A stretch of DNA of 64,000 nt, taken from IMG/VR virus record IMGVR_UViG_3300025778_000009; one strand, given 5' to 3'. Positions 1,682-37,803 of the stretch are shown in pieces. The notes under the pieces were generated by a model that made no database searches, was not told the origin of the DNA, and worked only from the letters and a program-made list of their open reading frames with translations. The DNA is from a virus (lineage: Duplodnaviria; Heunggongvirae; Uroviricota; Caudoviricetes). Each line of letters opens with the position of its first letter. The stretch's first letter is position 1. Position numbers and translations under genes: made by a program.

Positions 1682-1746
1682 ATTTTAACCTCAATAAATA
1701 CATTGTATACTACTAATATATATTATCTTAATTAATTAGGCAACAT

Positions 1747-4700
1747 ATGTCATCAGATATTTTAAATCAGCATCTAATCGGTAATGGAAGTAACACTCAA
1801 TTCACCTTATTAGAAGCTGTTGCCAATACTAGCTCTATTCTAGTAACTATCAACGGTCTAGTATCAGATCCTGACAGAGATTATACGGTTTCAGATAATT
1901 TATTATTATTTAATACCGCTCCATATAGTACTTCAGATATTGAAATTAGATATTTACCTGTAGTTCCCGTAGGATATACTGGGTCTGCAGGTGAACCTGC
2001 TGGTTACACTGGTTCTGCAGGACCAGTAGGAGCTCCTTCAGATATTCAGACTATAGTAGCTACTGGTTCATCTTATTACACTTTAACATCTACTCCTAAT
2101 TCTTCTAAAAATATATTAGTATCTGTAAATGGACTCTTACAGGTTCCAGAAGCTGATTATACTGTTTCTGGTTCTACTATTAATTTTAATACTATACCAG
2201 TAGAATTATCTGACATTGAAATAATTTATTTTGGTAATGTTGTAGGTTATAGAGGTTCTGCAGGGTTTCAAGGTTCTGTCGGATTTACAGGTTCTATTGG
2301 TTACAGTGGTAATGATGGATACACTGGTTCGATTGGTTACACAGGTTCTATAGGTGGTGCAGGTCCAGCTGGTTACACAGGTTCTGGTGGTGTAGCAGCC
2401 CCATCTGGTTTTCAAACATTTTTAACAGATAATAGAACTTCTTATCCTATTGATAGGGTAGTAGCATCATCTAAAGATATCTTAGTTTCCGTTAACGGGT
2501 TAATACAAGTACCTGACGCAGACTATATTGTTGTTGGTTCTAATATTAACTTTATAACAAAACCAAGTAATAATTCTGATGTAGAAATTTTATACTTTGA
2601 TGTTGCAGGGTTTATTGGTTCTACTGGTTATCTTGGTTCAACTGGGTTTAAAGGTTCTTCCGGTGACAACGGCTTACCAGGTTTCGTAGGATCCCAAGGT
2701 TATACAGGCTCTTCTGGTTTTGTCGGTTCTATGGGGTATGTTGGTTCTGGTGGTGTTGCCGCACCTTCAGAAATACAAACTATAGTTGCTGATGGTTCTA
2801 GTACATATACTTTAACAAGATATGTTGTTGATCCTAAACATATTTTTGTTATCGTTAACGGTCTTATTCAGATTGCAGATAGAGATTATACTGCAGCTGC
2901 AACTACCCTTACTTTCTATAATCCTCCTAATAATACTTCTGAAATTGAAATAATTTATTTTGAAGAAGCATTAGGATATCGAGGTTCTGTAGGTTATGCA
3001 GGTTCTGCAGGTACACCTGGAGGATCTACTGGTTATACTGGTTCTAGAGGAACTGACGGTTCCTTTGGATATACGGGTTCTACTGGTTATGTTGGTTCTG
3101 CTGGTGTTGGAGCTCCTTCTTCATATCAAATTTTATATGCAAATGGCTCTAATACAGTATTTACGTTAACATCTTCTGTTGATGCAGCTAAAAATATCCT
3201 TGTTTCTGTTAACGGTCTATTACAAATACCAGATACCGATTATACTGTATCCGGAACAACTATTTTATTTACTAATCCACCTAGTGATACTTCTCATATT
3301 GAAGTTTTATATTTTGATGTTTCTGGATATAGAGGTTCCACTGGTTATATGGGATCTAAAGGTGATCCTGGCGGTGATACTGGTTATACTGGCTCTATAG
3401 GTCCAAAAGGTGATATTGGTCCATTAGGTTATACTGGTTCTGTTGGATTTGGTTACACAGGTTCTGCAGGCCCTGTAGGTGCACCAACAAATTATCAAAC
3501 TATTGTTACAACATTTAATCAATCAACTTATAGTTTAAATCAAGATGTTGCACAAGCAGTAAGTATAATCGTTACTATAAACGGTCTTGTTCAAGTACCA
3601 GATCAAGACTATACCCTTCCTACTTCTAATACAATTACATTTACCAATACTCCAAATCCTAATTCTGATGTTGAAATTTTATATTTTTCTGCATCAGGAT
3701 TTACTGGATCAAGAGGTGCAGTAGGCTATCTAGGTTCAGTAGGTTATCAAGGTACTGTTGGTTTTAGCGGGTCGGCTGGTATTACTGGTTATATGGGATC
3801 TGCAGGGTCTGGGTTTACTGGCTCTATAGGTTATTCAGGATCTACAGGGTTTGCAGGATCTAGAGGAAGTTTAGGTTATACCGGCTCTATTGGTATTGGA
3901 TACACAGGTTCAGTTGGTTCTGGTTATACTGGTTCTACTGGTGCTGGGTATACCGGCTCTATCGGTTCATTAGGTTATACTGGTTCACAAGGATTTCAAG
4001 GTCTTACTGGTTATAGAGGTTCTACTGGTAGTACTGGTTTTGTAGGTTCTATTGGTTTAACAGGATCTATAGGTTATACAGGCTCTACTGGTGCCGGATT
4101 TGTTGGTTCTAGAGGTTTTGTTGGTTCTATTGGTTCACTAGGTTACACCGGATCTATTGGATTTACAGGTTCTATTGGTTATTCTGGTTCTAGAGGTGAT
4201 ATTGGTTTCTCTGGTTCAATAGGCTCGTTAGGTTATACAGGTTCTATTGGTATTGGATATACCGGTTCTACAGGAGCCCCTGGTGGTATTACGTATAACT
4301 ATAGATTCATTAATACACCTGTTGTTACTCCTGCATTTACTCAACAAGGTTATGCAGTTTTTAGTGCAACATCAAATGCTATTTACGTTACATCTGCTGA
4401 CCTAGCAGGAGCAAATACTGCATACTTTATAGAGTATGCATTAAAATCAGTTAATAATAGTATAAAAGGGTTTGTAACTTTATCAAGAGCTTCGACACCT
4501 TATGATGTTACAATATATTCAACTAACACTGCTATCTATTTCCCTTATCCTGCAGTACCTGCATTTCATAAAATATATCTTTCTTATCTGTCTGGTAATA
4601 CTACACCTTACTTAGACAATGAAATAATTAACATTTCATTTACGTTAACTGGAAGTCAAGGACCTAAAGGTGATAAGGGCGATATTGGTTATACTGGTTC

Positions 4701-7700
4701 TGCAGGTCCAGCTGGTCCTTCTGGTGCATTTGCTGGTATGGGTTATACCGGTTCTATTGGTTCATTGGGTTATTCTGGATCTATTGGATATACTGGTTCT
4801 ATAGGTATACAAGGTTCAATTGGCCCACAAGGCTACACAGGCTCTGTTGCTAACCCATCAGCTCCTGTAAGACAGAACTTTAACGGTGACGGTGTAACTA
4901 ACACATACAGTATTGATATCGGTCAAAACGTTAACGGTTATACACCTTATCAATTAGACGTTTATATTAACGGTGTAAAACTCTTTAACGGTATAGATGT
5001 CGATGTATCATCTGGTAATACCATACACTTTATTACCCCACCGAGAAAAGATGATAATATCGAAGTTGTAGGGTCATATATTTTCTCTACAAACCCAGAT
5101 AGTGCAGCATTATTTGGACCTAGAGGTTATACTGGGTCTGCTGGTCCACCTAACGGATATCAAGGATCTTTAGGTGAAACTGGCTATGTAGGTTCTAGAG
5201 GTTATACAGGTTCAACACCTAATCCTTCTGCACCTGTAAGACAAAATTTTAACGGTGATGGTACAACCAATACTTACTATATTGATATTGGTCAGAATGT
5301 AAATGGTTATACACCTTATCAGCTAGATGTTTATGTCAACGGTGTTAAGCTTTTCAATGGTATTGATGTTGATGTATCTTCTGGTAACTCTATTCATTTT
5401 ATTACACCACCTAGAATAAACGATAACATTGAAATAGTTGGATCTTATATCTTTTCAACTAATCCAGACAGTGCTGCATTGTTTGGTCCAAGAGGGTATA
5501 CTGGATCTCAAGGTCCACCAAACGGGTATCAAGGTTCTATTGGTGACATTGGTTATACTGGTTCTAGAGGCGATACTGGGTTTTCTGGTTCTGCTGGTAC
5601 TATTGGTTACTCTGGTTCTGGTGTAAGTTTTAGAAGTTACTATAATAATACTACAAATTACTATATTAATGATTTAGTAGAAGAAGATGGTGCCACTTAC
5701 ATTGCTATTGCACCTAGTATAGGAGAAGATCCTAAAACTAGCAACACATACTGGCAATTATTTGCTAGCAAAGGATATCAAGGTTCTAGAGGTTATACAG
5801 GTTCTACTCCTAACCCATCGTCTCCTGTAAGACAAAACTTTAACGGTGATGGTGTTTCTAGAACTTATTATATTGATATTGGGCAAAATGTCAATGGTTA
5901 TACTCCTTACGAGTTAGATGTATTCGTAAACGGTATTAAATTGTTTAACGGTCTTGATGTTGATGTATCATCTGGTAATGCTATTCACTTTGTAATACCG
6001 CCGAGAATAAACGATAATATCGAAGTAGTAGGGTCATATATTTTCTCTACTAATCCTGATCAAAATGCATTATTTGGGCCAAGAGGTTATACTGGTTCAG
6101 CAGGATTAAACGGGGCTGGTAATTCATTTACTAAAATTGTTGTTAGCGGTCAACCAGATTTAGTAGCATTAGAAGCAGATACTCTTCAAATAGTTGCTGG
6201 TGATAATATAGTTATATCAACTAACAATATTAATTCACCTAAAACTTTAACAATTTCTACATCACTGCCATCTGGTGCATCTGGTTATACAGGTTCGCAA
6301 GGTATAACGGGTTATATAGGTTCTATAGGAATTACCGGTTATACAGGATCAAGAGGATCTGATGGTGTTATAGGTTATAGTGGAAGTATAGGTTTCACAG
6401 GTTCTAAAGGGTCTGATGGCACTATAGGTTATACAGGATCGCAAGGTAATATAGGAAATACTGGAGATACTGGCTATACCGGATCAAGTGGAATAGACGG
6501 TGCAGTAGGTTATAATGGAAGTATAGGGTTCACAGGTTCTAAAGGGTCTGATGGTACTATAGGTTATACTGGATCTACAGGACCTGTAGCCGGATATGAT
6601 ACTCAAATTATATTTAATGATGGTAGTTATGCTAATGGTTCTTATGGATTAACTTATAATAAATCTACTCAAACATTAAACATAGGAAATAATCTTTATG
6701 TAGGTGGTAACATTTATATCACCGGCAACACTACAACTTTTGCTGCTAATAATTTAGAAATAGTAGATAATATGATCTACTTAAATTCTAATAGTGAATA
6801 TTCAAATCCCGATATTGGTTTTGCTGCAAATTATAATGACGGTGAATATCATCATACCGGTTTCTTTAGAGATCATGCAACAGGTATTTGGAAGGTATTT
6901 GAAAATTATAAACCAGAACCGCAAGCATCACAATTTATTGATCAATCTAATAATACCTTTAGAATAGCAGATTTTCAAGCAAATACTATTTTTGCTAATT
7001 CAATATATGCAAATGGTTCTTACGGTTCTTTTGGTCAAGTACTTATTTCTAATGGTTCAGGAATATTCTGGTCAACTTCTGCATTAGGGTTTAATGGTTC
7101 AACAGGGTATCAAGGTTCTTTAGGTGATACTGGCTACAAAGGTTCAATTGGTTACCAGGGTTCAGTTGGTAATCAAGGTATTTTTGGTTACCAGGGTTCT
7201 TCTGGCTACCAAGGATCAGTTGGTTATCAAGGAACTGTAGGTTTTCAAGGTTCAGCTGGCGCTACCGCCGATGCTGGTTATCAAGGAAGTGCAGGTTATC
7301 AGGGATCAGTAGGATTTCAAGGATCTTATGGATATCAAGGTACTGTAGGATTCCAAGGTTCTATAGGAGCTGTTGGATATCAAGGATCAGCAAGTGTTGG
7401 CTATAACGGTTCTACTGGATTTAATGGTTCTATAGGTAATAGAGGTCCTATAGGTTATACTGGATCAAAAGGTCAAGGATTTAATTGGAGAGGAGCTTGG
7501 GACGGAACACATAATGATTTTGGTGATTATCAAGTATACCTTCCTTATGATGTAGTACAATATGATCTAAACACATATGTTTGTATAGTATTATGTTATG
7601 GTGATTCTGGTACTCCTGCTGCAAGAACAGATTTATGGCAGATATTTGCAGAAGGTGTAGTAGGTTATGTTGGATCTAAAGGTCAAGATGGTGTACTGGG

Positions 7701-8370
7701 TTATAATGGTTCTATAGGTTATACAGGCTCAAAAGGTGATAATGGCGTTATTGGATATAACGGTTCTATAGGATATACAGGTTCTACTGGATTTGTTGGA
7801 TCTTCTGGAGCATCAGTTTATCAAGGCTATACTGGATCTACTGGTTATCAGGGTTCTAAAGGTGAAAGTTCTTATATTACCTCTGATACTGCACCTTCTA
7901 GTCCTTTAGTTGGAGATAGATGGTATAATACTACAGCTGGTATTGAACTAGTATGGACTTATGATGGTAATTCTTATCAGTGGGTAGAATTAGCTGCAAG
8001 CGGTTTCTTAGGTATGACCGGATATTCTGGTTCAATAGGAACTATAGGGTATACAGGTTCAGCTGCACAATCATTAATAAATTCAACTCAAAGTTCAATT
8101 TATGTTTTACAATCTTCGGATGATGGTAAATTAATTAATACATCTTATAGCGTTACTATACCTTCAAATGTATTTACAGCAGGTCAGACAATTACAATAT
8201 ATAACAGTAGCCAAACTAACGGTATTACAGTTACTCAAGGAAGCGGCACAACCGTATATTTGGTTAATACTACTTCTGTTGGAGACAGAACAGTAGGAGT
8301 AAATGGTATTGCAGTTATAATATGCGTGGATAATAATACTTTTGTTATTTCTGGTGGTGGTGTATCTTAA
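1747..8370 (+). CDS. giant (2207 aa) collagen-like fiber protein. It has six N-terminal ~75-aa repeated beta-domains separated by G-x-y tracts, long G-Y-T-G-S-x collagen-like tracts, three tandem ~100-aa domains, and a C-terminal globular region.
   Basis: Gly occurs at every third residue over hundreds of residues, in the pattern GYTGSIGFTGSIGYSGS. The module xQTIVAxGSxxYTLTxxxxxKNILVSVNGLLQVPDxDYTVSGxTIxFxxxPxxSDIEIxYF recurs six times. The block NPSAPVRQNFNGDG...FGPRGYTGS recurs three times. Confidence 0.8.
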   Translation: MSSDILNQHLIGNGSNTQFTLLEAVANTSSILVTINGLVSDPDRDYTVSDNLLLFNTAPYSTSDIEIRYLPVVPVGYTGSAGEPAGYTGSAGPVGAPSDIQTIVATGSSYYTLTSTPNSSKNILVSVNGLLQVPEADYTVSGSTINFNTIPVELSDIEIIYFGNVVGYRGSAGFQGSVGFTGSIGYSGNDGYTGSIGYTGSIGGAGPAGYTGSGGVAAPSGFQTFLTDNRTSYPIDRVVASSKDILVSVNGLIQVPDADYIVVGSNINFITKPSNNSDVEILYFDVAGFIGSTGYLGSTGFKGSSGDNGLPGFVGSQGYTGSSGFVGSMGYVGSGGVAAPSEIQTIVADGSSTYTLTRYVVDPKHIFVIVNGLIQIADRDYTAAATTLTFYNPPNNTSEIEIIYFEEALGYRGSVGYAGSAGTPGGSTGYTGSRGTDGSFGYTGSTGYVGSAGVGAPSSYQILYANGSNTVFTLTSSVDAAKNILVSVNGLLQIPDTDYTVSGTTILFTNPPSDTSHIEVLYFDVSGYRGSTGYMGSKGDPGGDTGYTGSIGPKGDIGPLGYTGSVGFGYTGSAGPVGAPTNYQTIVTTFNQSTYSLNQDVAQAVSIIVTINGLVQVPDQDYTLPTSNTITFTNTPNPNSDVEILYFSASGFTGSRGAVGYLGSVGYQGTVGFSGSAGITGYMGSAGSGFTGSIGYSGSTGFAGSRGSLGYTGSIGIGYTGSVGSGYTGSTGAGYTGSIGSLGYTGSQGFQGLTGYRGSTGSTGFVGSIGLTGSIGYTGSTGAGFVGSRGFVGSIGSLGYTGSIGFTGSIGYSGSRGDIGFSGSIGSLGYTGSIGIGYTGSTGAPGGITYNYRFINTPVVTPAFTQQGYAVFSATSNAIYVTSADLAGANTAYFIEYALKSVNNSIKGFVTLSRASTPYDVTIYSTNTAIYFPYPAVPAFHKIYLSYLSGNTTPYLDNEIINISFTLTGSQGPKGDKGDIGYTGSAGPAGPSGAFAGMGYTGSIGSLGYSGSIGYTGSIGIQGSIGPQGYTGSVANPSAPVRQNFNGDGVTNTYSIDIGQNVNGYTPYQLDVYINGVKLFNGIDVDVSSGNTIHFITPPRKDDNIEVVGSYIFSTNPDSAALFGPRGYTGSAGPPNGYQGSLGETGYVGSRGYTGSTPNPSAPVRQNFNGDGTTNTYYIDIGQNVNGYTPYQLDVYVNGVKLFNGIDVDVSSGNSIHFITPPRINDNIEIVGSYIFSTNPDSAALFGPRGYTGSQGPPNGYQGSIGDIGYTGSRGDTGFSGSAGTIGYSGSGVSFRSYYNNTTNYYINDLVEEDGATYIAIAPSIGEDPKTSNTYWQLFASKGYQGSRGYTGSTPNPSSPVRQNFNGDGVSRTYYIDIGQNVNGYTPYELDVFVNGIKLFNGLDVDVSSGNAIHFVIPPRINDNIEVVGSYIFSTNPDQNALFGPRGYTGSAGLNGAGNSFTKIVVSGQPDLVALEADTLQIVAGDNIVISTNNINSPKTLTISTSLPSGASGYTGSQGITGYIGSIGITGYTGSRGSDGVIGYSGSIGFTGSKGSDGTIGYTGSQGNIGNTGDTGYTGSSGIDGAVGYNGSIGFTGSKGSDGTIGYTGSTGPVAGYDTQIIFNDGSYANGSYGLTYNKSTQTLNIGNNLYVGGNIYITGNTTTFAANNLEIVDNMIYLNSNSEYSNPDIGFAANYNDGEYHHTGFFRDHATGIWKVFENYKPEPQASQFIDQSNNTFRIADFQANTIFANSIYANGSYGSFGQVLISNGSGIFWSTSALGFNGSTGYQGSLGDTGYKGSIGYQGSVGNQGIFGYQGSSGYQGSVGYQGTVGFQGSAGATADAGYQGSAGYQGSVGFQGSYGYQGTVGFQGSIGAVGYQGSASVGYNGSTGFNGSIGNRGPIGYTGSKGQGFNWRGAWDGTHNDFGDYQVYLPYDVVQYDLNTYVCIVLCYGDSGTPAARTDLWQIFAEGVVGYVGSKGQDGVLGYNGSIGYTGSKGDNGVIGYNGSIGYTGSTGFVGSSGASVYQGYTGSTGYQGSKGESSYITSDTAPSSPLVGDRWYNTTAGIELVWTYDGNSYQWVELAASGFLGMTGYSGSIGTIGYTGSAAQSLINSTQSSIYVLQSSDDGKLINTSYSVTIPSNVFTAGQTITIYNSSQTNGITVTQGSGTTVYLVNTTSVGDRTVGVNGIAVIICVDNNTFVISGGGVS

Positions 8371-9134
8371 TGAGTATTTTTAATGCTATAACTTCTATAC
8401 CCTATCAAGCTGCATATTTGCCAGCTGGAGTTTCATACGGAAGCGCGCTTCTTAACAATCTATATGTTGGTAATTCAGATAGAAGTTTAGGATCAGGGTA
8501 TCTTTATACTTCCCGTACAGGTGGATTTATTACTTCCGGCTCACTAAATGATTTTACTATAGAAGCATGGATATATCCTAAGTGGTTTAGTTATTCTGGT
8601 GGATATTATAATATGGTTATTATGAGTACCCACACTGGAAGTGGAAATCCAGGATGGGAATTTAAATTACAAGGTCCTTCTGCATCTAGATGGACTTCTT
8701 TAACTTTACGTAATCAAAGAATTTCAACAGATTATCAATTTCCTATAAATTTAGGAGGAAGTGATCTTAACAAATGGTATCATGTTGCCATAGTATATAC
8801 TTCATCTAATCATAGTTTAATTGGTTATTTAAATGGGAATGTATTATCATCTATATCTCCAGCTTATTTTTCAGATAATAATATTCTTCATGTTGGATTT
8901 AATTATACATACTTCCCTTATTGGTTTAAGGGAAACCTTACTAATTTAAGAATATCTAAAACTGCAAGATATACTAATTATTTTACACCATCTGTAGCAC
9001 ACAATATAGCAGATAGTAATGATACATTTATAATGAATATGCCAACAAGTAATTTTTTACAAGAAGATACCGGACTAACTATTTTATATTCAGGTGATCC
9101 TAGTGTAGTTTCACAAGATAATAATCACCCTTAA
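8370..9134 (+). CDS. structural protein with a ConA/LamG-like lectin-fold motif
   Basis: The motif WYHVAIVYTSSNHSLIGYLNGNV matches the LamG/ConA pattern W-H-hA-h-...-LYhNG. The start overlaps the upstream stop as TAATGA, which suggests translational coupling. Confidence 0.5.
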   Translation: MSIFNAITSIPYQAAYLPAGVSYGSALLNNLYVGNSDRSLGSGYLYTSRTGGFITSGSLNDFTIEAWIYPKWFSYSGGYYNMVIMSTHTGSGNPGWEFKLQGPSASRWTSLTLRNQRISTDYQFPINLGGSDLNKWYHVAIVYTSSNHSLIGYLNGNVLSSISPAYFSDNNILHVGFNYTYFPYWFKGNLTNLRISKTARYTNYFTPSVAHNIADSNDTFIMNMPTSNFLQEDTGLTILYSGDPSVVSQDNNHP

Positions 9135-9167
9135 TAAATATTATATAACATTAACCTATGAATAAAA

Positions 9168-11195
9168 ATGACAATTATTGATTTTCCTAATAGCCCAGCA
9201 GATGGTGATATCTATACATTTGGAAATAAATCCTGGCAATGGAATGCGTCAGGAAACTATTGGTTTGCAATATCAAAAACAATAGGCTATTCAGGCTCGA
9301 TAGGGTATACCGGATCTTCTGGTGCATCTGTATACATGGGATATACCGGGTCACAAGGATATTATGGTTCTACCGGGTTTCAAGGCTCTTTAGGCTATGA
9401 TGGTTCTATTGGATATACAGGATCTATAGGTTATACAGGTTCAACTGGATTTCAAGGATCAGCTGGGTTTGTAGGATCTCAAGGAACAAGTGGTGTTATA
9501 GGATATATTGGCTCTTCTGGTTTTACTGGTTCTACCGGGTTTAATGGTTCAGTAGGGTTTATAGGTTCTATAGGTTATTCTGGATCCATAGGTTACAACG
9601 GTTCTTTTGGTTTTACTGGTTCTACCGGGTTTAATGGGTCGGTAGGATTTACTGGATCACTAGGTTATACAGGATCTTTAGGTTACAGCGGTTCTATTGG
9701 GTATACTGGTTCTACAGGGTTTAATGGGTCGATAGGTTTTACAGGATCATTAGGTTTTACAGGATCATTAGGTTATAACGGTTCTACTGGATTTCAAGGG
9801 TCGTCAGGATTTAATGGATCTATAGGTTTTAACGGATCTATTGGATATACAGGTTCAATAGGGTATATAGGATCAGCTGGTTTTCAAGGGTCAACTGGTT
9901 TTCAAGGATCAGTAGGATTTATAGGGTCATTAGGATTTACTGGATCCCAAGGTGTTAACGGTGTAATAGGCTATAATGGATCGGTAGGATTTACAGGGTC
10001 AATTGGATATACAGGGTCTGCTTCTACTACACCGGGATATAATGGTTCTTTTGGGTATACTGGTTCGCAAGGTGCAAACAGTTTATACACACAATCTAAT
10101 ACTGCTCCTCTATATCCTAATCCAGGTGATAGATGGTTTAATACTGATATTGGAATTGAGTTAGTATACACAACAGATGCTAACGGTTCACAGTGGGTAG
10201 AAATTGCATCTAGCGGATTTTTAGGTCAAACTGGTTATAATGGGTCTCAAGGTGTTATCGGGTATACTGGATCACAAGGCATTCAAGGCATTATAGGTTA
10301 TTCTGGTTCAGTAGGATTTAACGGATCTATTGGATTTACAGGTTCAACAGGATTTACGGGCTCTACTGGTTTTAACGGATCGATTGGATTTGTAGGATCT
10401 ATAGGTTTTACAGGTTCTATTGGTACAGGGTATGTAGGTTCTAAAGGGTTTAATGGTTCAATAGGTGCAACAGGTTATGTTGGATCTACAGGATCAACAC
10501 CTACTATAACTTATACTTCACCTACTATGAACGTGTTTACATCTGGTTCTGGAACATATACAACACCAGGAAGTGTTGTGTGGATACGCGTACGAATGAT
10601 AGGCGGTGGCGGTGGCGGTGGTGGTGGTGGCACTAATAATTCAACCACATATAATTCAGTATATGCAGGAGCAAACGGAACTGCAACAACGTTTGGTGGT
10701 ACTTTACTAGTATGTAATCCTGGTCAAGGTGGTTTTGGTGCATATGATCTGCAATATGGTTTTGGAGGTACTGCTTCTATTGGTGATACTTCAAAAGCAT
10801 TTGGTATTGCATTAAACGGTGCATCTGGAGAACCAGGTTGGTCATCATCTCCTTCTACTTATGTTTCTGGTGGTTCTGGTGGTGCATCACCTTTTGGAGG
10901 TGCAGGGGCAAGAGGTTCTGGTGGTACAACCCCGGATGCAGTTTCAATTGCTGCGTCACCAAATACAGGAAGCGGCGGCGGAGGTGGTGGCAGCACTAAC
11001 GCTACTAACGCAAGAGGCGGCGGCGGTGGAGGCGCTGGAGGTTACATAGATGTTATAATAAGAATTCCAGATGCAACGTATTCATATGTAGTAGGTACTG
11101 GCGGAAGAGGTGGAGCTAACGGTACATCACAGTCTGGTTCAGGTAACACAGGTGCTTCTGGTATTATTATGATTGAAGAGCATTATGGTAGCTAA
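9168..11195 (+). CDS. collagen-like fiber protein with a conserved N-terminal adaptor module and a C-terminal Gly-rich module
   Basis: The N-terminus MTIIDFPNSPADGDIYTFGNKSWQWNASGNYW is followed by about 270 residues of G-x-y. It then carries the TAPLYPNPGDRWFNTDIGIELVYT motif, and the C-terminal ~230 aa are rich in poly-Gly, resembling the ORF at 15905. Confidence 0.75.
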   Translation: MTIIDFPNSPADGDIYTFGNKSWQWNASGNYWFAISKTIGYSGSIGYTGSSGASVYMGYTGSQGYYGSTGFQGSLGYDGSIGYTGSIGYTGSTGFQGSAGFVGSQGTSGVIGYIGSSGFTGSTGFNGSVGFIGSIGYSGSIGYNGSFGFTGSTGFNGSVGFTGSLGYTGSLGYSGSIGYTGSTGFNGSIGFTGSLGFTGSLGYNGSTGFQGSSGFNGSIGFNGSIGYTGSIGYIGSAGFQGSTGFQGSVGFIGSLGFTGSQGVNGVIGYNGSVGFTGSIGYTGSASTTPGYNGSFGYTGSQGANSLYTQSNTAPLYPNPGDRWFNTDIGIELVYTTDANGSQWVEIASSGFLGQTGYNGSQGVIGYTGSQGIQGIIGYSGSVGFNGSIGFTGSTGFTGSTGFNGSIGFVGSIGFTGSIGTGYVGSKGFNGSIGATGYVGSTGSTPTITYTSPTMNVFTSGSGTYTTPGSVVWIRVRMIGGGGGGGGGGTNNSTTYNSVYAGANGTATTFGGTLLVCNPGQGGFGAYDLQYGFGGTASIGDTSKAFGIALNGASGEPGWSSSPSTYVSGGSGGASPFGGAGARGSGGTTPDAVSIAASPNTGSGGGGGGSTNATNARGGGGGGAGGYIDVIIRIPDATYSYVVGTGGRGGANGTSQSGSGNTGASGIIMIEEHYGS

Positions 11196-11215
11196 TAAAA
11201 AGGTTTTTATTTTTA

Positions 11216-11830
11216 ATGAGTATTAATTTTCCTGCTAACCCAACACCTAATCAAGTATACACACTAGGTAGTAAAACTTGGACTTGGAATGCAGTATATG
11301 GTTACTGGCAGGCAACATCTACAACCATTGGGTATACCGGTTCACAAGGTAACCAAGGTTACTTAGGTTATACTGGTTCAACTGGGTTTCAAGGATCAGT
11401 TGGATACCAAGGATCAACTGGGTATCAAGGATCTGTAGGTTTTCAAGGATCTGCTGGGTTTCAAGGATCTGCTGGGTTTCAAGGATCTGCTGGGTTTCAA
11501 GGGTCAGCAGGATTTAATGGATCTTTCGGTTATACAGGATCTCTTGGTTATGCTGGATCTATAGGTCTTGCAAATGCTGTAGTTAGTGATACTGCTCCAG
11601 GTACTCCTGCTACTGGCCAATTATGGCTAGACTCTTCTACTGGTCTGCTAAATATATGGTATTCTCCTTCTAATGTGTGGCTTTCGGTAACATCAGTAGG
11701 CATTCAAGGACAGACCGGTTATGCTGGTTCTGTGGGAAATCCTGGACCTGCAGGAGGAGCTACTGGTTATCAAGGGTCAGCTGGCTCTCTAAGTGCAGCT
11801 ATAGGTATATCAATTATTTTTGGAATTTAA
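11216..11830 (+). CDS. short collagen-like fiber protein sharing the N-terminal adaptor module
   Basis: The N-terminus is MSINFPANPTPNQVYTLGSKTWTWNAVYGYW, followed by G-(Y/F)-Q-G-S repeats and the motif DTAPGTPATGQLWLDSSTGLLNIWY. Confidence 0.7.
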   Translation: MSINFPANPTPNQVYTLGSKTWTWNAVYGYWQATSTTIGYTGSQGNQGYLGYTGSTGFQGSVGYQGSTGYQGSVGFQGSAGFQGSAGFQGSAGFQGSAGFNGSFGYTGSLGYAGSIGLANAVVSDTAPGTPATGQLWLDSSTGLLNIWYSPSNVWLSVTSVGIQGQTGYAGSVGNPGPAGGATGYQGSAGSLSAAIGISIIFGI

Positions 11831-11841
11831 GAGAATAGCAA

Positions 11842-13376: not shown

Positions 13377-13389
13377 AAGGAGTTTTATT

Positions 13390-13752
13390 ATGGATTTTTT
13401 TACTATTACAGATGCGGATAAAAAACTAACAATTGCAAGAAATATTGTTATGAGAGAACAAGAAATACATGCATACGAATTAAATGTAATAAATTATCAA
13501 GTAATTTTAGATTCTCTTCCAAAAGATGAATGGCCAGCAGTTATTAGTGCATATAAAGAAACACCTATTCAAAACGTTCCTTCAGATTATCATGATCTAG
13601 TAAATGACTATCAATTTAGAGAGCGTGTTAGACATCTTATAGCAACAGAAAAGCATGAAATGAATAAATCAGTGAAAGTATATCAAGCTTTGTTAACACA
13701 GATACCAGCAGAAGAATTGCCAGATCTATTAAAAGCAGCACAACAAGTTTAA
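13390..13752 (+). CDS. hypothetical protein
   Basis: 120-aa ORF with an RBS-like AAAGGAG upstream and a non-repetitive helical composition. Confidence 0.4.
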   Translation: MDFFTITDADKKLTIARNIVMREQEIHAYELNVINYQVILDSLPKDEWPAVISAYKETPIQNVPSDYHDLVNDYQFRERVRHLIATEKHEMNKSVKVYQALLTQIPAEELPDLLKAAQQV

Positions 13753-13758
13753 TAAAAA

Positions 13759-15903
13759 ATGTCACTAAGTTTTCCTAGTAGCCCTAGTATCGGTAATTTA
13801 TATTTTTCTGGTGGTAACACCTGGAAATGGACTGGTACCACATGGGTTATAGTAGGTAGTTCTGGCTTTCAAGGATCTATAGGGTTTCAAGGTTCTTCTG
13901 GTGCTATCGTAGCACCAGGCAGCACATCACAAGTATTATATAATGATGGTGTTTATGCTAATGCATCAGCTGGGTTAACATTTAGTAAAACTAGTAACAA
14001 TTTATTTGTTGGTAATACTTTAATTGCAAATTCTATATCTGCTAACGGATATATTGGTTCAGCAGGCCAACTTTTATATTCTAATTCTTCCGGTGGAATA
14101 TATTGGGCAAATGCTGCAGGCGGGTTTGCAAATGGTCAATCTATTGCAGTAAACGTTTTGACAGTTAATAGTTCATTAACTGCAAACGGTATAACAATTC
14201 ACAATGCTAATTTAGTCGCAAATAGTATTACTATTCATAATGCTAACGTAATATTTTCTACAACATTACCTTTAACATCACCTGCTGGTATTATAGCAAA
14301 CGGCTCTATTGGTACAGCATTTCAAACTCTATTATCTAACGGCACGGGGTTATATTGGGATAGTAATACCTATGTCTCTAACTCTTATTTTTCTACTAGT
14401 GGTGTAGGAGTATCTAATTCTTATGCATCAGCTACATATGTTACCAATAATACAATTAATTCCGCCAACATAATTTTAGGTGTTGCAAATGTTACTTTTA
14501 ATAGTAATGTAGTACATAATGCTAACATAACAATTAATGCTGTTTCTGCATATACGACATTTGCATCAAAAAATTATGTGTTTAATGCAAATACTATGGC
14601 TATTTTAACAAATAATTTTAGCACATATGCAACAACATTAAGTTCATCACAATATGTTAATATCGGTACTGGAACAACCTCAGTTTATGCTGGTAATGGT
14701 TATGGCTTTACTTCAGAATTTTTTGTTAAATTTAATACTCTTTCAACAACTTCAACATTGACACCTATGTGGTTTGATAATACAGGTGGTGGAGGTCGTC
14801 CAAATCAATATGCATTATTTGCTAATACTACTACGTTATCAGCTTCTCAAATTGGATACGGTACAATATTTACATTAACAGGATTAACAATTGCAACTGG
14901 TGTGTGGTATCATATGGCCTGGATAGGCTTTAATAATAACATGTATTTTGCAATTAATGGTACTGTTTATGATTTAAATACAGTTCCATCTAATGGAAAT
15001 TTTGCAACCGGGTATCCGTACAATTGGGGTGGTATATATAATCTTTCAAATGCTACCTATTCAAACATAAGAGTTGTTGCAAACAATAATATTTACTCCA
15101 TACATGGGTTTATTCCTCCAAACGCACCATTAAATGCACCCCCAGGCACATCCTTGTTAAATTTTCAATCTAGTACTTTTGCTGATTCTATTACAGGTAC
15201 TTTATTATCTACTACTGGAACACCCACTTTATCAACAACGACTATAAACTTATATCCCACAGCTAATAACAATTTAGTAAGTGGTACTATTAATAATGGA
15301 AATGCTATATTTCAATCTGTAACAACAAACTATATTCAAACACCTACATTGTATGTGTATGGAGCTAATGGTGCTGCTTCTACTTTATATGTTTCTAATG
15401 GTGTTTTATTAATAGGAAATACATCTGTTAACTCAGTTCATAATAGTAAATCATTATCCATTTATGATTCAATTGCAGTAAGCAATCTTACTATTAATTC
15501 TACTTCTATTGCTATATCAAATAGTACAATAACTAATGCTAAAATTTCTCCAGTTCAGACACTTACTGTTGCCTTGTCTGATGAATCAACTCAAATAACA
15601 CAAGGTATTAAAATTGTAACAAGAGCTCCTTATGCCATGACATTAGTACCTCCCTATGCAAGAATATCTTTATCAATAACAGGTACAACAACAACATCCG
15701 TAGATATTACATCTGGCGGATCTTCTATATTTTCGGCAACCCCATCATTAGCATCTGGTGTAATTTCTAATACAGGACCTGCATCTATGTCAGCAACAGG
15801 ATTAGCCACTATTGCAGATGATACACAATTACAATTTAGTGTGTCTGCTAACGGCGCTGGTGCTAGCGGGTTAAAAGCAACACTATATTATGTAAAGATC
15901 TAA
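13759..15903 (+). CDS. fiber protein with the N-terminal adaptor module, a short collagen-like tract and a LamG-like motif
   Basis: The N-terminus is MSLSFPSSPSIGNLYFSGGNTWKWTGTTW, followed by GFQGSIGFQGSSG. A LamG-like motif VWYHMAWIGFNNNMYFAINGTVY occurs later. The protein is Thr/Asn/Ser-rich. Confidence 0.65.
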   Translation: MSLSFPSSPSIGNLYFSGGNTWKWTGTTWVIVGSSGFQGSIGFQGSSGAIVAPGSTSQVLYNDGVYANASAGLTFSKTSNNLFVGNTLIANSISANGYIGSAGQLLYSNSSGGIYWANAAGGFANGQSIAVNVLTVNSSLTANGITIHNANLVANSITIHNANVIFSTTLPLTSPAGIIANGSIGTAFQTLLSNGTGLYWDSNTYVSNSYFSTSGVGVSNSYASATYVTNNTINSANIILGVANVTFNSNVVHNANITINAVSAYTTFASKNYVFNANTMAILTNNFSTYATTLSSSQYVNIGTGTTSVYAGNGYGFTSEFFVKFNTLSTTSTLTPMWFDNTGGGGRPNQYALFANTTTLSASQIGYGTIFTLTGLTIATGVWYHMAWIGFNNNMYFAINGTVYDLNTVPSNGNFATGYPYNWGGIYNLSNATYSNIRVVANNNIYSIHGFIPPNAPLNAPPGTSLLNFQSSTFADSITGTLLSTTGTPTLSTTTINLYPTANNNLVSGTINNGNAIFQSVTTNYIQTPTLYVYGANGAASTLYVSNGVLLIGNTSVNSVHNSKSLSIYDSIAVSNLTINSTSIAISNSTITNAKISPVQTLTVALSDESTQITQGIKIVTRAPYAMTLVPPYARISLSITGTTTTSVDITSGGSSIFSATPSLASGVISNTGPASMSATGLATIADDTQLQFSVSANGAGASGLKATLYYVKI

Positions 15904-15904
15904 T

Positions 15905-16843
15905 ATGAGTACCTATCTTTTAAATGAATATATAGGTGCTGGTTATAGTGATGGTCTAATAATTCCACCTGCAGCACCGTCACAAATTATTTTTACTACA
16001 GTAGGTGCATATTCATGGGCAGTACCACTAGGAGTAACTAGAATATGTGTTGTTGCAGTTGGGGGAGGTGGTGGAGGTGCAAATATAGCCAACGCTGGAG
16101 GAGGTGGCGGAGGTGGTTTAGTATATCTGAACAATTACACAGTAAAAGCTGGTGATATTGTTTCAGGAATCGTAGGAGATGGTGGTACAGCAAATACAGT
16201 AGGTGTTTCTACTACAGTACTTGTTAATGGATCTAATATAATTACTGCTCAGGGTGGAAGTGGAGGATCTGGTACTGTTGGTGGATCGGGAGGAAGTGGT
16301 ACTGGTATCTCAGGTATAGTTGCAAATTCAGGAGGAGCAGGAGGTAATTTTACTGGTTCTGGATCACCTTACGGTGCAGGTGGAGGTGGTGCTGCAGGTT
16401 ATTCAGGTGCTGGAGGACGTGGTGGATTTTCATCAGGAAACTCTGGAGGTATAGCAGCTATTGCAGGTGCAGGAGGTGGTGGCGGTGGCGGGGGAGCTGC
16501 TTACAGTACAAATAATACCGGTAGTGGTAGTGGTGCTGGAGGTGGTGGTGTTGGACTATTAGGTTCTGGTACAAATGGAACAGCTGGTACTCAAGGTTTT
16601 AGAAATACTCCTGTAAATCCTACTGGAGGCGGTGGTGGTTCAGGAGGAGCAGCTGGTACAAATGGCGGAGTTGTTAGTGCATCTGCTCCAGTTGGAGGAG
16701 CATACGGTGGTGGAGGCGGTGGTACACAGGGTGCTAACGGAAACCCTGCAGTTAACGGTAAAGGCGGGCAAGGTGCTGTAAGAATAATTTACGGTTATTC
16801 AACAGACACAAGAACATTTCCTTCTAATGCCGGGGATTTATAA
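15905..16843 (+). CDS. glycine-rich protein, homologous to the C-terminal module of the 9168..11195 protein
   Basis: YSWAVPLGVTRICVVAVGGGGGG parallels YTTPGSVVWIRVRMIGGGGGGGG in ORF 9168. Repeated GGxGG tracts run throughout. Confidence 0.55.
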   Translation: MSTYLLNEYIGAGYSDGLIIPPAAPSQIIFTTVGAYSWAVPLGVTRICVVAVGGGGGGANIANAGGGGGGGLVYLNNYTVKAGDIVSGIVGDGGTANTVGVSTTVLVNGSNIITAQGGSGGSGTVGGSGGSGTGISGIVANSGGAGGNFTGSGSPYGAGGGGAAGYSGAGGRGGFSSGNSGGIAAIAGAGGGGGGGGAAYSTNNTGSGSGAGGGGVGLLGSGTNGTAGTQGFRNTPVNPTGGGGGSGGAAGTNGGVVSASAPVGGAYGGGGGGTQGANGNPAVNGKGGQGAVRIIYGYSTDTRTFPSNAGDL

Positions 16844-16866
16844 TAAATTATCTTACCTTTGAATCT

Positions 16867-16874
16867 TATAAATA
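16867..16874 (+). promoter_or_regulatory. T4-type late promoter motif TATAAATA
   Basis: Exact TATAAATA lies about 35 nt upstream of the ATG at 16910. A gp55 homolog is encoded in this window. Confidence 0.4.
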
Positions 16875-16909
16875 CTTAAAAATACATTTACTTTTAGGAA
16901 AAATCTAAA

Positions 16910-18142
16910 ATGACCACGAAGATTTTCGTTTCCCAGATTGATAAAACTAATCCTGACGGGTATACAGGTTCTACCGGTGCCTTCTTAATCCTTGGTTCAA
17001 CTGGACCTTATTGGGCTAGTGGTGACGCTGCTGCACCTGTAGGATTTTTAGGTTCTATAGGTTTTCAAGGATCTTCTGGATTTCAAGGATCTTTTGGATA
17101 TACAGGGTATCAAGGATCACTAGGTTTTGTTGGTTATACTGGCTCAATTGGGTTTCAAGGTTCATCTGGATTTTTAGGATCATCAGGATTTCAAGGTTCT
17201 TTAGGTGATACTGGATATAAAGGATCTTTTGGTGATGTTGGTTTTAGAGGATCACAAGGTGTAATAGGTGATCAAGGTCCAGTAGGCTATCAAGGATCTA
17301 CTTCTTTTGCTGGTTCAGTAGGATTTCAAGGTTCTGTCGGCCCTCCTGGACCAATTAATATTGGATTTCAAGGGTCATTAGGTGACACAGGTTACCAAGG
17401 ATCAGCTGGTTTCCTAGGTTCTTCTGGATTTCAAGGTTCAGTAGGATTTTTAGGATCTTCAGGATTCTTAGGTTCAGCAGGATTTGCAGGTAGTGTAGGT
17501 TACGGTCTAACAGGCTATACTGGGTCAGTAGGTGCATCAGGAGGGCTAGGGCCTTTTGGTTATCAAGGATCTACTGGTTTTACTGGATCTGTACCCAATG
17601 TGAGTTTAACTGGTCTTGTTGATTTTCCTGCTTCATATACTTCTCCAAACGCATTTTTAAGAGTAAATGCTGCTGCTTCTGGTATTGTATTTGATACAAA
17701 TACTTACATTACTAATTCAATGTCTACTGGCATCAGTATGAATTATAATACATTGTTTAATCCAGTTCTTCTTGGATATGGTGAAGTAGTAAATCCAATT
17801 GGTAATGCAACAGTAACCGGTTTTGGTTTTACACCAACCGCTAATGGAAATATTGTTACTGTAACATTAACTGATTCTGTTGTTGGTGTTACAATAGGTA
17901 CTACTGGAATGGTGTCTGGTAGATTATATACCGCAACAATGTTTATTAAACAAGACGGTACAGGTAACAGAACAATAGATTGGTCTGCTTTAAATATAAA
18001 ATGGCCAACTGGTGAAAGTACGCCTCCTACAGGACCTGTTCTTTCTATACAACCAAATTATACAGATGTTATAACATTATATACTTTAAATGCAGGAACT
18101 ACATGGTATGGTATTTTAGCTATTAAAGGTTTTAACGGTTAA
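16910..18142 (+). CDS. collagen-like fiber protein with a non-collagen C-terminal domain
   Basis: About 200 aa of G-F-Q-G-S / G-Y-T-G-S repeats are followed by a Thr/Val-rich globular region. Confidence 0.7.
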   Translation: MTTKIFVSQIDKTNPDGYTGSTGAFLILGSTGPYWASGDAAAPVGFLGSIGFQGSSGFQGSFGYTGYQGSLGFVGYTGSIGFQGSSGFLGSSGFQGSLGDTGYKGSFGDVGFRGSQGVIGDQGPVGYQGSTSFAGSVGFQGSVGPPGPINIGFQGSLGDTGYQGSAGFLGSSGFQGSVGFLGSSGFLGSAGFAGSVGYGLTGYTGSVGASGGLGPFGYQGSTGFTGSVPNVSLTGLVDFPASYTSPNAFLRVNAAASGIVFDTNTYITNSMSTGISMNYNTLFNPVLLGYGEVVNPIGNATVTGFGFTPTANGNIVTVTLTDSVVGVTIGTTGMVSGRLYTATMFIKQDGTGNRTIDWSALNIKWPTGESTPPTGPVLSIQPNYTDVITLYTLNAGTTWYGILAIKGFNG

Positions 18143-18144
18143 AA

Positions 18145-19680: not shown

Positions 19681-19690
19681 GGAGTTTAAG

Positions 19691-31443: not shown

Positions 31444-31444
31444 G

Positions 31445-37780: not shown

Positions 37781-37803
37781 TATAAATGCTCCATTATAAA
37801 GCG

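Follow-up and report, generated by a model that had tools for sequence, protein, structure and literature searches.

Collagen-like fibre proteins with an aromatic, serine-rich Gly-X-Y repeat in the putative host-recognition cluster of a marine T4-like phage

The window analysed in the present study is a 64,000-nt stretch of DNA from a virus of the Caudoviricetes (IMG/VR record IMGVR_UViG_3300025778_000009). An array of fibre genes, named ORFs A to E here, lies near its left edge. The genes of the array, their neighbours, and the features within them are as follows.

2..1681, minus strand: fused group-1 (GT4-like) and family-2 glycosyltransferase (Pfam Glycos_transf_1 5.5e-16, Glycos_transf_2 3.5e-14)
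1747..8370, plus strand: ORF A, 2207 aa, giant mosaic fibre protein (Pfam Collagen 1.8e-85 over 15 stretches; PHROG tail-fibre families 1e-131 to 1e-58)
3697..4257, plus strand: largest block of collagen-like sequence in ORF A (aa 651-837), with runs of 13, 9, 17, and 17 triplets separated by short breaks
6274..6588, plus strand: longest unbroken run of ORF A (aa 1510-1614, 35 triplets), with 27-nt and 54-nt tandem repeats
8370..9134, plus strand: 254-aa protein with a concanavalin-A-like lectin/glucanase domain (Pfam Laminin_G_3 8.3e-12)
9168..11195, plus strand: ORF B, 675 aa (Pfam Collagen 5.9e-39)
9339..10022, plus strand: unbroken hexad run of ORF B, 76 triplets (228 aa, aa 58-285), with 18-nt and 90-nt DNA tandem repeats
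11216..11830, plus strand: ORF C, 204 aa, minimal fibre (Pfam Collagen 1.4e-16)
13759..15903, plus strand: ORF D, 714 aa, non-collagen fibre-like protein with the N-terminal module common to B, C, and D
15905..16843, plus strand: 312-aa glycine-rich domain protein (Pfam Gly_rich_2 2.9e-7, phrog_4474 7.6e-36), without collagen periodicity
16910..18142, plus strand: ORF E, 410 aa (Pfam Collagen 3.4e-23)
17042-17593, plus strand: collagen-like stalk of ORF E (aa 45-228), after a small N-terminal beta-hairpin domain and before a neck
17777-18139, plus strand: beta-sandwich tip of ORF E (aa ~290-410), as modelled by AF2
18145..19680, plus strand: 511-aa protein, containing a tail-collar-like CDG..GTPDLRG motif and several HxH motifs, that follows members of the ORF E family as a conserved partner

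Directly downstream of the array are genes for an endolysin, gp13, gp14, gp15, terminase, sheath, tube, portal, protease, scaffold, and capsid. In pelagimyophages and cyanomyophages, the host-recognition cluster occupies an equivalent place, and triple collagen repeats have already been recorded there (PMC7029224). Since gp13/14/15 and the other neighbours match that cluster, we assign the array to the tail-fibre/host-recognition module (tail fibre or receptor-binding protein class). Judging from gene content, the source phage appears to be a pelagimyophage-like T4-type myophage. Its sole nucleotide match was to the capsid gene of Pelagibacter phage Mosig (84% over 108 nt). The lectin-like protein between ORFs A and B is a candidate carbohydrate-binding partner within the array. 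A homologue of ORF E in a 290-kb contig is placed likewise, upstream of gp13/14/15, and the 511-aa partner is 30% identical (E 2e-37) to the gene next after the ORF E homologue of a related viral contig (L001).

The earlier note had claimed five collagen-like fibre genes, and four of them stand. The longest unbroken Gly-X-Y runs of ORFs A, B, C, and E were 35, 76, 27, and 29 triplets, respectively, and 1000 residue shuffles per protein never gave runs above 8, 12, 6, and 7 triplets. The Pfam Collagen (PF01391) scores were 281, 132, 60.5, and 81.6 bits, all above the gathering cut-off of 27.2 bits. All four proteins also matched PHROG tail-fibre and "collagen like minor tail" families (best 2.9e-131). 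Together with their position in the tail-fibre cluster and with the folds of the ORF E tip and the ORF A module, which resemble known fibre domains, these matches uphold the description as collagen-like fibre genes. In contrast, ORF D does not belong to the set; its only run counts 6 triplets (aa 33-50; shuffle maximum 5), Pfam Collagen is not matched, and a weak ConA-like region was found in the remainder.

Glycine was also said to occupy every third position for hundreds of residues, which does not apply to ORF A. Globular modules and short G-x-G or G-x-x-x-x-G breaks divide its repeat into segments of 4-35 triplets. The 26 runs of at least 4 triplets sum to 286 triplets, or 39% of the protein, and alternate with the globular modules. 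Six modules are ~70 aa in length (aa 1-85, 98-166, 218-287, 339-409, 456-526, and 570-650), three are ~89-aa variants (aa 1035-1123, 1158-1246, and 1355-1443), and there are other inserts besides. The module model (pLDDT 93.6) superimposed on the N-terminal domains of CBA120 TSP4 with a TM score of 0.78 (rmsd 1.4 A) and on the T7 proximal fibre with TM scores of 0.70-0.73. A weak Pfam Phage_T7_tail match was present (E 0.013), and a profile of the modules matched the N-terminal region of a K1 depolymerase (1.4e-7) and the cyanophage P-SCSP1u fibre gp28. On this modelling, ORF A is predicted to be a string of T7-fibre-N-terminal-like modules linked by collagen segments. In T7-type fibres and TSP4, these N-terminal domains dock the protein on the tail or, in the case of TSP4, on other spikes. 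However, T7 gp17 and TSP4 have one to a few N-terminal copies of this fold, whereas ORF A has nine on collagen-like linkers in one 2207-aa chain. The short segments of ORF A (4-9 triplets) and its G-x-G breaks may not hold a stable helix alone.

Small conserved modules flank the long runs: B, C, and D share an FP..P..W.W module at the N-terminus, and A, B, and C contain W modules internally. In ORF B, the N-terminal module is followed by the 76 triplets, a W module (aa ~305-349), 24 and 7 further triplets, and a Gly-rich C-terminal domain. In ORF C, the N-terminal module leads into 27 triplets, after which come a W module, 7 more triplets, and a C-terminal tail that is hydrophobic.

For ORF E, 329 homologues were recovered, many of them full length. 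In an AF2 model built from 85 sequences, both ends folded confidently (tip pLDDT 90-98), whereas the stalk had a pLDDT of 29-47 and no strands; disorder would fit this low stalk confidence equally well. The tip superimposed on phage fibre proteins in BFVD with an rmsd of 1.6-2.8 A over 112-137 columns. Its matches were fibre proteins of Vibrio, Roseobacter, and Synechococcus phages, not C1q, and it is a confidently predicted tip domain, probably of the receptor-binding type. The unbroken runs of the ORF E family contain 34, 35, 36, 37, 38, or 39 triplets, and no mod-6 or mod-18 quantisation of its stalk spans was found. Run lengths therefore vary by single triplets, which suggests that the structure is built on triplets rather than hexads.

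The hexad noted earlier is real at the sequence level. In 181 of 191 cases (95%), the triplet next after one with Y or F at X has Ser there. The Y position is T, Q, N, or S after an aromatic X and I, T, A, V, or L after a Ser X, giving a core of G-[YF]-[TQN]-G-S-[IVLTA] that recurs each 6 or 9 residues. The 35-triplet run of ORF A is mainly of the nonad type (G-Y-T-G-S-x-G-x-x). Tandem Repeats Finder detected a DNA period of 18 nt, multiples of 36, 54, 72, and 90 nt, and some 27-nt (nonad) units. Y and F fill 37% of X positions, Ser and Thr make up 24% of repeat residues, and one hexad position is aliphatic in ~54% of hexads, with two others small; the "i" position carries a polar residue (Q, S, K, R, D, E, or N) in ~23%. 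The claim that proline is absent needs correction, since it is rare rather than missing (1.8% of residues over 514 triplets, ~5 per 100 triplets). In ORF A, Pro occupies X in 15 triplets, and GPP, GPK, and GPA triplets occur in the repeats. We searched the repeats for a high imino-acid content or a charge-pair stabiliser and found neither, with Pro at the level above and D/E/K/R at 3.9% of residues.

This motif is not a peculiarity of the window. It was present in about 160 recovered metagenomic proteins and is common in viral metagenomes. Related viral contigs carry multi-gene hexad arrays (L001 and L002 have four hexad ORFs), and nonad spacing is frequent among relatives. The aromatic, proline-poor stalk is a common, experimentally uncharacterised variation on the collagen-like fibre already known from phages. 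Among loci with a shared tip domain, the aromatic-X content drops as contig G+C rises (rho -0.62); therefore, the composition may partly reflect AT mutational bias or lineage and not structural selection.

The closest known systems are the collagen-like fibre candidates of cyanomyophages and pelagimyophages (P-SSM2 orf023/orf028; S-CRM01 g20/g23), which lie in the same hypervariable fibre island by gp13/gp14/gp15. In the candidate fibre genes of P-SSM2, positions X and Y are frequently Pro, Ser, or Thr (PMC1079782). S-CRM01 g20 and g23 are annotated as tail fibre/collagen repeat proteins and share position and module architecture with the window. Like the window fibres, g23 has the FP..P..W.W module, a collagen run, a W module (..P..P..GD.W....W[VL]E[LI]), a second run, and a C-terminal domain, and S-CRM01 also has Phe at X (GFQ). 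However, its units are GPQ-GFQ-G(N/V/S)x with 25-42 prolines per protein, and G[YF]xGSx hexads number 0 and 2. Relative to S-CRM01 and P-SSM2, the window proteins have G-S-x in place of the Pro triplet, and Tyr is added.

In characterised collagens of bacteria and phages, Pro fills 19-50% of X positions (PMC3368898, PMC8968730). The E. coli O157 prophage collagens (EPclA etc.) form a triple helix by CD with a Tm of 42 C (PMC3368898). EPclA and its relatives resemble the window proteins in being annotated as phage tail fibres and in having a Gly-X-Y domain flanked by phage-fibre modules (trimerising in the EPclA group). However, they have Pro at approximately half of X positions, abundant charge, and no F, Y, W, H, or C (PMC3368898), and the contrast drawn earlier with characterised collagens thus holds. 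BclA and F-BclA share a Ser/Thr-rich Gly-X-Y stalk, a globular tip, and a nearby glycosyltransferase with the window proteins, which lack their GPT-type triplets, exosporium leader, and C1q/TNF-like C-terminal domain. We rejected a BclA-type exosporium collagen; there are no GPT repeats, and the match of BclA to ORF B was marginal (4.2e-4) and through the repeat only.

We conclude that A, B, C, and E are probably tail-fibre/host-recognition proteins of a marine T4-like myophage, with Gly-X-Y segments that most likely form homotrimeric collagen triple helices. The helices would serve as thin stalks of adjustable length to connect and space globular modules, namely, the T7-fibre-N-terminal-like domains of ORF A and the receptor-binding-type tip of ORF E, with lectin-like and Gly-rich proteins encoded beside them. 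The G-[YF]-[TQN]-G-S-[IVLTA] core would stand in place of imino-acid or charge-rich triplets. An aromatic ring at X' may pack on the aliphatic or Thr Y of the preceding triplet in a neighbouring chain (an "axial" Y-X' contact), while Thr, Gln, Asn, and Ser would provide hydration and hydrogen-bond networks. The flanking FP..P..W.W and internal W modules may set the trimer register, a cold marine habitat would lessen the thermal stability required, and the 18-nt to 90-nt tandem DNA repeats would permit quick changes in stalk length. Trimer formation, these contacts, and presence in the virion are what we infer from the sequence and models.

Several results point to a triple helix. Glycine is strict for up to 76 triplets, far past the shuffles, and Pfam Collagen is matched above threshold. 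An obligate-oligomer helix also fits the AF2 result, in which no monomeric stalk fold is found and yet both ends fold. Moreover, aliphatic Y residues (IVLMF) are coupled to an aromatic X in the next triplet. Among 156 external proteins, whose mutual relatedness inflates the significance, Y is aliphatic before an aromatic X in 49% versus 25% of Ser-X triplets (odds ratio 2.8) and in 46% versus 14% of other triplets (odds ratio 5.3); the trend is alike in the window ORFs. This coupling supports the axial interchain contact. In collagen peptides, stabilisation has been shown by experiment for the axial amide-pi pair Gln(Y)-Phe(X') and for the cation-pi pairs Arg-Phe and Lys-Phe (PMC9599227), and Thr is the commonest preference at Y in bacterial collagens (PMC8968730). 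In designed collagen-mimetic peptides, as proposed for the window from the coupling, the aromatic X' contacts the Y of the preceding triplet in a neighbouring chain. However, these peptides hold a single pair in a (GPO)n host, whereas the window proteins have no imino-acid host, pair the aromatic residue mostly with Ile, Val, Leu, or Thr, and repeat the pair each 6-9 residues over hundreds. Counting against a triple helix are the contents of imino acids (~5 per 100 triplets) and charged residues, both far under those of every experimentally stable triple helix. The host-guest peptide work of Persikov et al. 2000 reportedly places Tyr and Phe, when at X, among the residues least favourable for the triple helix.

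One alternative keeps the triple helix and makes its stability or function depend on O-glycosylation of Ser/Thr by phage-encoded glycosyltransferases, as in the precedents of Bacillus BclA and F-BclA. The Ser and Thr content is consistent with it, and so is the fused glycosyltransferase gene, 65 nt upstream of ORF A; this gene is on the opposite strand, diverges from ORF A, and is truncated by the left edge of the window. A homologue with 51% identity lies inside another hexad-fibre cluster (L011). BclA is glycosylated, F-BclA has 45% Ser/Thr with a glycosyltransferase in its genomic context, and this glycosylation was proposed to help hydration (PMC8968730; bioRxiv 10.1101/2025.02.11.637640). 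However, a homologue of the glycosyltransferase domain pair was present in only 1 of 82 related loci, and L001 and L002, despite their four hexad ORFs, have no glycosyltransferase among their annotated genes. Furthermore, glycosyltransferases are frequent in this island generally and are read as modifiers of the host surface (PMC7029224). We consider a dependence on glycosylation to be unlikely.

Alternatively, the hexad region may be a flexible, mostly disordered low-complexity tether ([G/S]Y[G/S]-like), with any trimerisation arising from the globular domains only. The stalk pLDDT and lack of secondary structure, the very low imino-acid and charge contents, and the many short, interrupted segments of ORF A are in line with a tether. 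However, single-chain AF2 is blind to a structure that exists only in a trimer, so that its low confidence is uninformative. A tether would not require exact glycine at each third residue over 76 triplets, indels mostly of whole triplets, or position-specific X and Y preferences with Y(n)-X(n+1) coupling. We regard this explanation as improbable.

The earlier note had also raised a different Gly-periodic fold, such as a left-handed beta-helix of hexapeptide repeats or a polyproline-II/polyglycine-II bundle of the snow-flea antifreeze type. The period of six residues, with one aliphatic and two small positions, would suit such folds, and I-G-Y-T-G-S resembles [LIV]-G-x-x-[STAV]-x. However, neither Hexapep nor any Pfam family besides Collagen was matched at E<=0.01, and AF2, which usually folds hexapeptide beta-helices as single chains, predicted no strands in the stalk. 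Both hexad glycines are equally strict, the "i" position is polar too often, and nonad spacing is common in relatives. Tightly packed polyproline-II bundles require Gly or Ala at packing positions, to which a bulky Y or F at each sixth residue is ill-suited. Taken with stalk lengths that change by single triplets and with the Y(n)-X(n+1) coupling, these patterns favour a true triple helix and make another Gly-periodic fold very improbable.

Returning to the triple helix, we tentatively speculate that the hexad proteins could represent a widespread natural class with no need of imino acids or charge pairs. It would be held by a repeating interchain "aromatic clamp" of [IVLT](Y)-[YF](X') and a Ser/Thr/Gln hydration shell, tuned to cold seawater, and perhaps modified by glycosyltransferases of the island. 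More speculatively, the nine docking modules of ORF A might scaffold B, C, and D, through their shared N-terminal module, into a branched receptor-binding tree.

Collagen-like fibre genes were already known in this phage group (PMC7029224, PMC1079782), and nothing in the array points to a new kind of system. Where phage and bacterial triple helices have been shown by experiment, they depend on proline, charge pairs, or glycosylated threonine. If aromatic/Ser hexads form triple helices, the known sequence range of the fold would be widened, and axial pairs of an aliphatic Y followed by an aromatic X' would offer a natural design rule for proline-free recombinant collagens. In abundant marine T4-like phages, the collagen-like proteins are a marker of the host-recognition apparatus, and their tandem repeats are an obvious route to rapid change in fibre length.

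The interval 1747-19680 is filled by eleven co-directional ORFs separated by gaps of 0-66 nt. The earlier note described glycine at every third position for hundreds of residues in five of them, here called ORFs A to E. We scored every stretch of four or more consecutive Gly-X-Y triplets as a run, X and Y being the second and third triplet positions. This periodicity was retained in ORFs A, B, C, and E, but not in ORF D.

Features of the fiber array and its flank (triplets are those in the counted runs)
2-1681, minus strand, fused group-1 (GT4-like) and family-2 glycosyltransferase gene, cut by the window edge
1747-8370, ORF A, 2207 aa, 286 triplets over 26 runs, longest run 35
8370-9134, ConA-like lectin-domain protein (Pfam), neighbor in the array
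9168-11195, ORF B, 675 aa, 129 triplets, longest run 76 (aa 58-285)
11216-11830, ORF C, 204 aa, 34 triplets, longest run 27
13759-15903, ORF D, 714 aa, 6 triplets, longest run 6
16910-18142, ORF E, 410 aa, 59 triplets, longest run 29

Among 1000 shuffles per protein, the longest runs reached 8, 12, 6, and 7 triplets for ORFs A, B, C, and E, respectively. Since the observed runs exceed these maxima, chance was excluded for these four ORFs.

Over 514 triplets, the most frequent residues apart from Gly were as follows: Ser accounted for 15.6% of all residues, Thr for 8.4%, Tyr for 7.7%, Phe for 5.6%, Ile for 5.4%, and Gln for 4.5%, while Asp, Glu, Lys, and Arg together contributed 3.9%. Proline had been reported as absent; it is rare but present, at 1.8% of residues (approximately 1 per 18 triplets), including 15 Pro at X in ORF A. 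The hexad repeat, G-[YF]-x-G-S-x, was confirmed. In 181 of 191 cases, the triplet after one with Tyr or Phe at X had Ser in this position, and the DNA contained tandem repeats with a period of 18 nt and its multiples (36, 54, 72, and 90 nt), together with some 27-nt units, at matches of 60-94%. Both glycines of the hexad were equally strict across very long runs. The Y position was mostly T, Q, or N after an aromatic X and mostly I, T, A, V, or L after Ser. Because the X following a G-S-x triplet was aromatic in 114 cases and another residue in 66, the core G-[YF]-x-G-S is spaced by 6 residues or by 9 (a nonad). Moreover, the residue at Y is coupled to X of the next triplet, and the extended natural motif is therefore [IVLT]-G-[YF]-[TQN]-G-S.

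The assignment of these genes as collagen-like fiber genes was upheld for ORFs A, B, C, and E. All four exceeded the Pfam Collagen gathering score (E-values of 1.8e-85 to 1.4e-16) and matched many PHROG families, including tail fiber protein, tail protein, and collagen-like minor tail (best 2.9e-131). Their location agrees with this assignment. The array is followed by genes for an endolysin, head-tail adaptor (gp13-like), head closure (gp14-like), sheath stabilizer (gp15-like), and large terminase, and further downstream by those for the sheath, tube, portal, prohead protease, scaffold, and major capsid protein. In pelagimyophages and cyanomyophages, a hypervariable 'host recognition cluster' with tail fibers, glycosyltransferases, concanavalin-A domains, and 'triple collagen repeats' precedes the neck genes (Zaragoza-Solas et al., PMC7029224), and the array occupies this location. 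Collagen-like Gly-X-Y ORFs of Prochlorococcus phage P-SSM2 were earlier proposed as tail-fiber genes (PMC1079782). Similarly, g20 and g23 of cyanophage S-CRM01, annotated as tail fiber/collagen triple helix repeat, lie a few genes upstream of gp13/14/15, and g23 has the same N-terminal module, internal tryptophan-containing (W) module, and C-terminal region as ORFs B to D. S-CRM01 was the only phage genome returned by tblastn with ORF B because the low-complexity filter masks the repeat. A megablast search of 1-20000 yielded no cultured-phage match, and the sole match for 20000-44000 was 84% over 108 nt in the capsid gene of Pelagibacter phage Mosig. The phage itself is uncultured. PDB sequence searches with ORFs B and C revealed no solved structure with the Y/F-Ser hexad; the matches obtained (animal collagens, the GAPGSQ-repeat 'fibril' entry 8zxl, and BclA) reflect Gly periodicity alone.

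Two other regions of the window were noted. In the stretch from the portal gene to the prohead protease gene (29527-32491), neither of two ORFs (638 and 348 aa) had a PHROG match, and the longer one had only a weak Ephrin_rec_like match (5.1e-5). A small minus-strand island at 36584-41000, between the capsid gene and replication genes, carries genes for an SPFH/Band-7 domain protein and for an NAD-dependent sugar epimerase/dehydratase; the second is a further sugar-metabolism gene of the phage.

ORF E had 329 detectable homologues, many of full length, with 36-89% identity and on contigs of up to 290 kb. An AF2 model based on an alignment of 85 sequences consisted of a small N-terminal beta-hairpin domain (pLDDT about 80), a structureless stalk at aa 45-228 (pLDDT 29-47), and a beta-sandwich tip at aa ~290-410 (pLDDT 90-98). 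The tip superimposed on many BFVD phage proteins (E down to 1e-12, rmsd 1.6-2.8 A, 112-137 columns), including the tail fiber protein of Vibrio phage Vp_R1, a putative fiber protein of Roseobacter phage CRP-4, and Fiber of Synechococcus phage S-SM2. Foldseek with the full model gave no PDB match at E<=0.001. The T4-type late-promoter consensus TATAAATA occurs at 16867-16874, 43 nt before the start of ORF E, in a 66-nt gap that is the array's only intergenic space of any size. The first 20.4 kb contain just one more copy, at 1531 within the glycosyltransferase gene. The gene at 18145-19680 is conserved directly after ORF E homologues. In one contig (L001), the ORF E homologue occupies the same place and is followed by a homologue of this gene (30% identity) and then gp13, gp14, gp15, and terminase. 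The encoded 511-aa protein had no Pfam or PHROG match; it carries a tail-collar-like WHVCDGNNGTPDLRGFY motif and at least six HxH motifs, such as HNGHYHE, FHDH, RHNHS, HWHV, AHSHG, and NHSHS. HxH motifs coordinate iron in the T4 gp37 fiber tip.

As the fold of the repeat, we favor a genuine collagen helix on the basis of the strict glycines, unquantized run lengths, Y-residue preferences, and Y-to-next-X coupling. Uninterrupted runs in the ORF E family comprise 34, 35, 36, 37, 38, or 39 triplets, and stalk spans were not biased toward multiples of 6 or 18 residues. The run lengths thus step by single triplets, which indicates a structural period of three residues. The residues preferred at Y in the window (T, I, Q, V, and A) are reportedly among the better non-imino Y residues on the Persikov host-guest scale. 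However, Tyr and Phe at X are intrinsically unfavorable in host-guest peptides, and numerous collagen-like segments of ORF A are short and interrupted, both of which weigh against a triple helix. In 156 external hexad proteins, Y of Ser-X triplets was aliphatic in 49% of cases before an aromatic X and in 25% otherwise (odds ratio 2.8), and Y of other triplets in 46 and 14%, respectively (odds ratio 5.3); the window ORFs gave odds ratios of 2.2 and 7.5. As the sequences are related to each other, P-values overstate their independence, and it is the effect sizes in the two data sets that carry weight. In the triple helix, the 'axial' interchain contact is formed by Y and X of the following triplet (X'). 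Axial Gln(Y)-Phe(X') pairs stabilized collagen peptides by ~2 C per pair, and this contact is present in a 1.4-A crystal structure (PMC9599227). We infer that the aromatic ring at X' is clamped by an aliphatic or Thr side chain of the neighboring chain, and that Ser, Thr, Gln, and Asn supply hydration. Imino-acid content is linked to environmental temperature, and a cold marine habitat may lower the stability requirement. A PPII-bundle fold was set aside on the Pfam, stalk-length, and AF2 evidence. A hexapeptide left-handed beta-helix was also set aside in view of the three-residue period, the absence of Pfam support, and an AF2 model without such a fold.

Glycosylation of the Ser and Thr residues of the repeat by a phage enzyme was also considered. 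The glycosyltransferase gene and ORF A lie on opposite strands and are divergent, with 65 nt between the start of the former and ORF A, and a homologue with 51% identity is located inside the hexad-fiber cluster of another contig (L011, 6921-10274), as the N-terminal half of a 1117-aa ORF between collagen-like fiber genes. Among Ser/Thr-rich collagen stalks, BclA and F-BclA also provide precedents for glycosylation or for a glycosyltransferase encoded in the genomic context (PMC8968730, bioRxiv 10.1101/2025.02.11.637640). However, L011 was the only one of 82 related loci with the homologue, and L001, which has four hexad ORFs, shows no glycosyltransferase among its annotated genes. Furthermore, glycosyltransferases are generally enriched in this island and are interpreted as modifiers of the host surface (PMC7029224). 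Glycosylation by the phage enzyme may occur but is not supported.

ORF A has a bead-on-a-string architecture of six ~70-aa modules and three ~89-aa variants (mutual identity 26-54%), each bordered by collagen segments, with several other inserts besides. The predicted structure of a module (pLDDT 93.6) matched the N-terminal domains of CBA120 tailspike TSP4 (TM 0.78, rmsd 1.4 A), the T7 proximal fiber N-terminal domain, and fiber/adaptor chains of several podophage tails. This fold agrees with the sequence matches, namely, a sub-threshold match to Pfam Phage_T7_tail and profile matches to the N-terminal region of K1 capsule depolymerase (1.4e-7) and cyanophage P-SCSP1u fiber gp28. The chain therefore carries nine copies of a T7/CBA120-type fiber N-terminal domain. 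In CBA120, such domains dock other tailspikes, and ORFs B, C, and D have a common N-terminal module (FP..P..W.W); ORF A might therefore serve as the scaffold of a branched fiber complex. Two small aromatic-rich inserts of ORF A, aa 1293-1342 (5623-5772) and aa 1912-1969 (7480-7653), share the pattern Y..D.V...G..Y.A......P.....W; they resemble small carbohydrate-binding modules but had no Pfam match at E<=1. A hydrophobic tail, SLSAAIGISIIFGI (11789-11830), directly follows the last collagen triplets of ORF C and terminates the protein. This is unusual for a fiber tip, and the tail could be a docking strand or membrane-active segment. The C-terminal domain of ORF B (10503-11192) is Gly-rich but non-periodic and includes a G9 tract. 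The protein at 15905-16843 is also Gly-rich and non-periodic and matches Pfam Gly_rich_2 and phrog_4474; no similarity was detected between the two.

The earlier note regarded the motif as a departure from canonical collagens. This holds against characterized collagens; however, the motif is not a local oddity, being widespread in sequence databases. Collagen-like proteins of E. coli prophages form a triple helix with a Tm of 42 C; roughly half of their X positions are Pro, charged residues are numerous, and F, Y, and W are absent (PMC3368898). Across bacterial collagens, Pro fills 19-31% of X and Thr 32-48% of Y (PMC8968730); the window shares the habit of Thr at Y, but has alternating Y/F and Ser in place of Pro at X. 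Literature searches for GYTGS and six related hexapeptides turned up no paper on the motif. Among the 120 ORF E homologues listed, the median fractions were 0.33 for aromatic X, 0.36 for Ser X, and 0.06 for Pro per triplet. When the 228-aa run of ORF B was used for a full HMMER scan of 1.84 billion cluster representatives, there were 45,260 matches at E<=1e-3, of which 1,137 reached E<=1e-30. Among the best 149 representatives, which were analyzed further, 36 belonged to the same aromatic, low-Pro type and contained as many as 81 hexads each. Those looked up were on ENA and JGI metagenome contigs of 13-229 kb and carried either no name or the automatic name 'collagen type VII alpha'. Six of the 82 related loci (L001, L002, L006, L007, L010, and L011) contained arrays of two to four hexad-type ORFs.

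Aromatic-X content falls with contig G+C in loci with the ORF E tip domain (Spearman -0.62), and base composition probably contributes to it in part. AT bias as the sole cause was rejected because of low-GC loci sharing the tip: L018 has neither aromatics nor Pro, and L012, L013, L046, and L054 have Pro. A 1106-aa ORF of another viral contig, L073 (IMGVR_UViG_3300037507_003913), has a different aromatic variant, G-[YF]-S-G-[YF]-S-G-x-S, with Y/F at X in 148 of 268 triplets and one proline. The existence of this variant indicates that aromatic proline-free Gly-X-Y proteins are a broader class in viral contigs. This type of object, a collagen-like tail fiber encoded in the host-recognition island, is already known from marine T4-like phages. 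What is uncharacterized is the compositional variant, an aromatic/Ser hexad or nonad nearly devoid of imino acids and charges, for which there is a testable stabilization rule.
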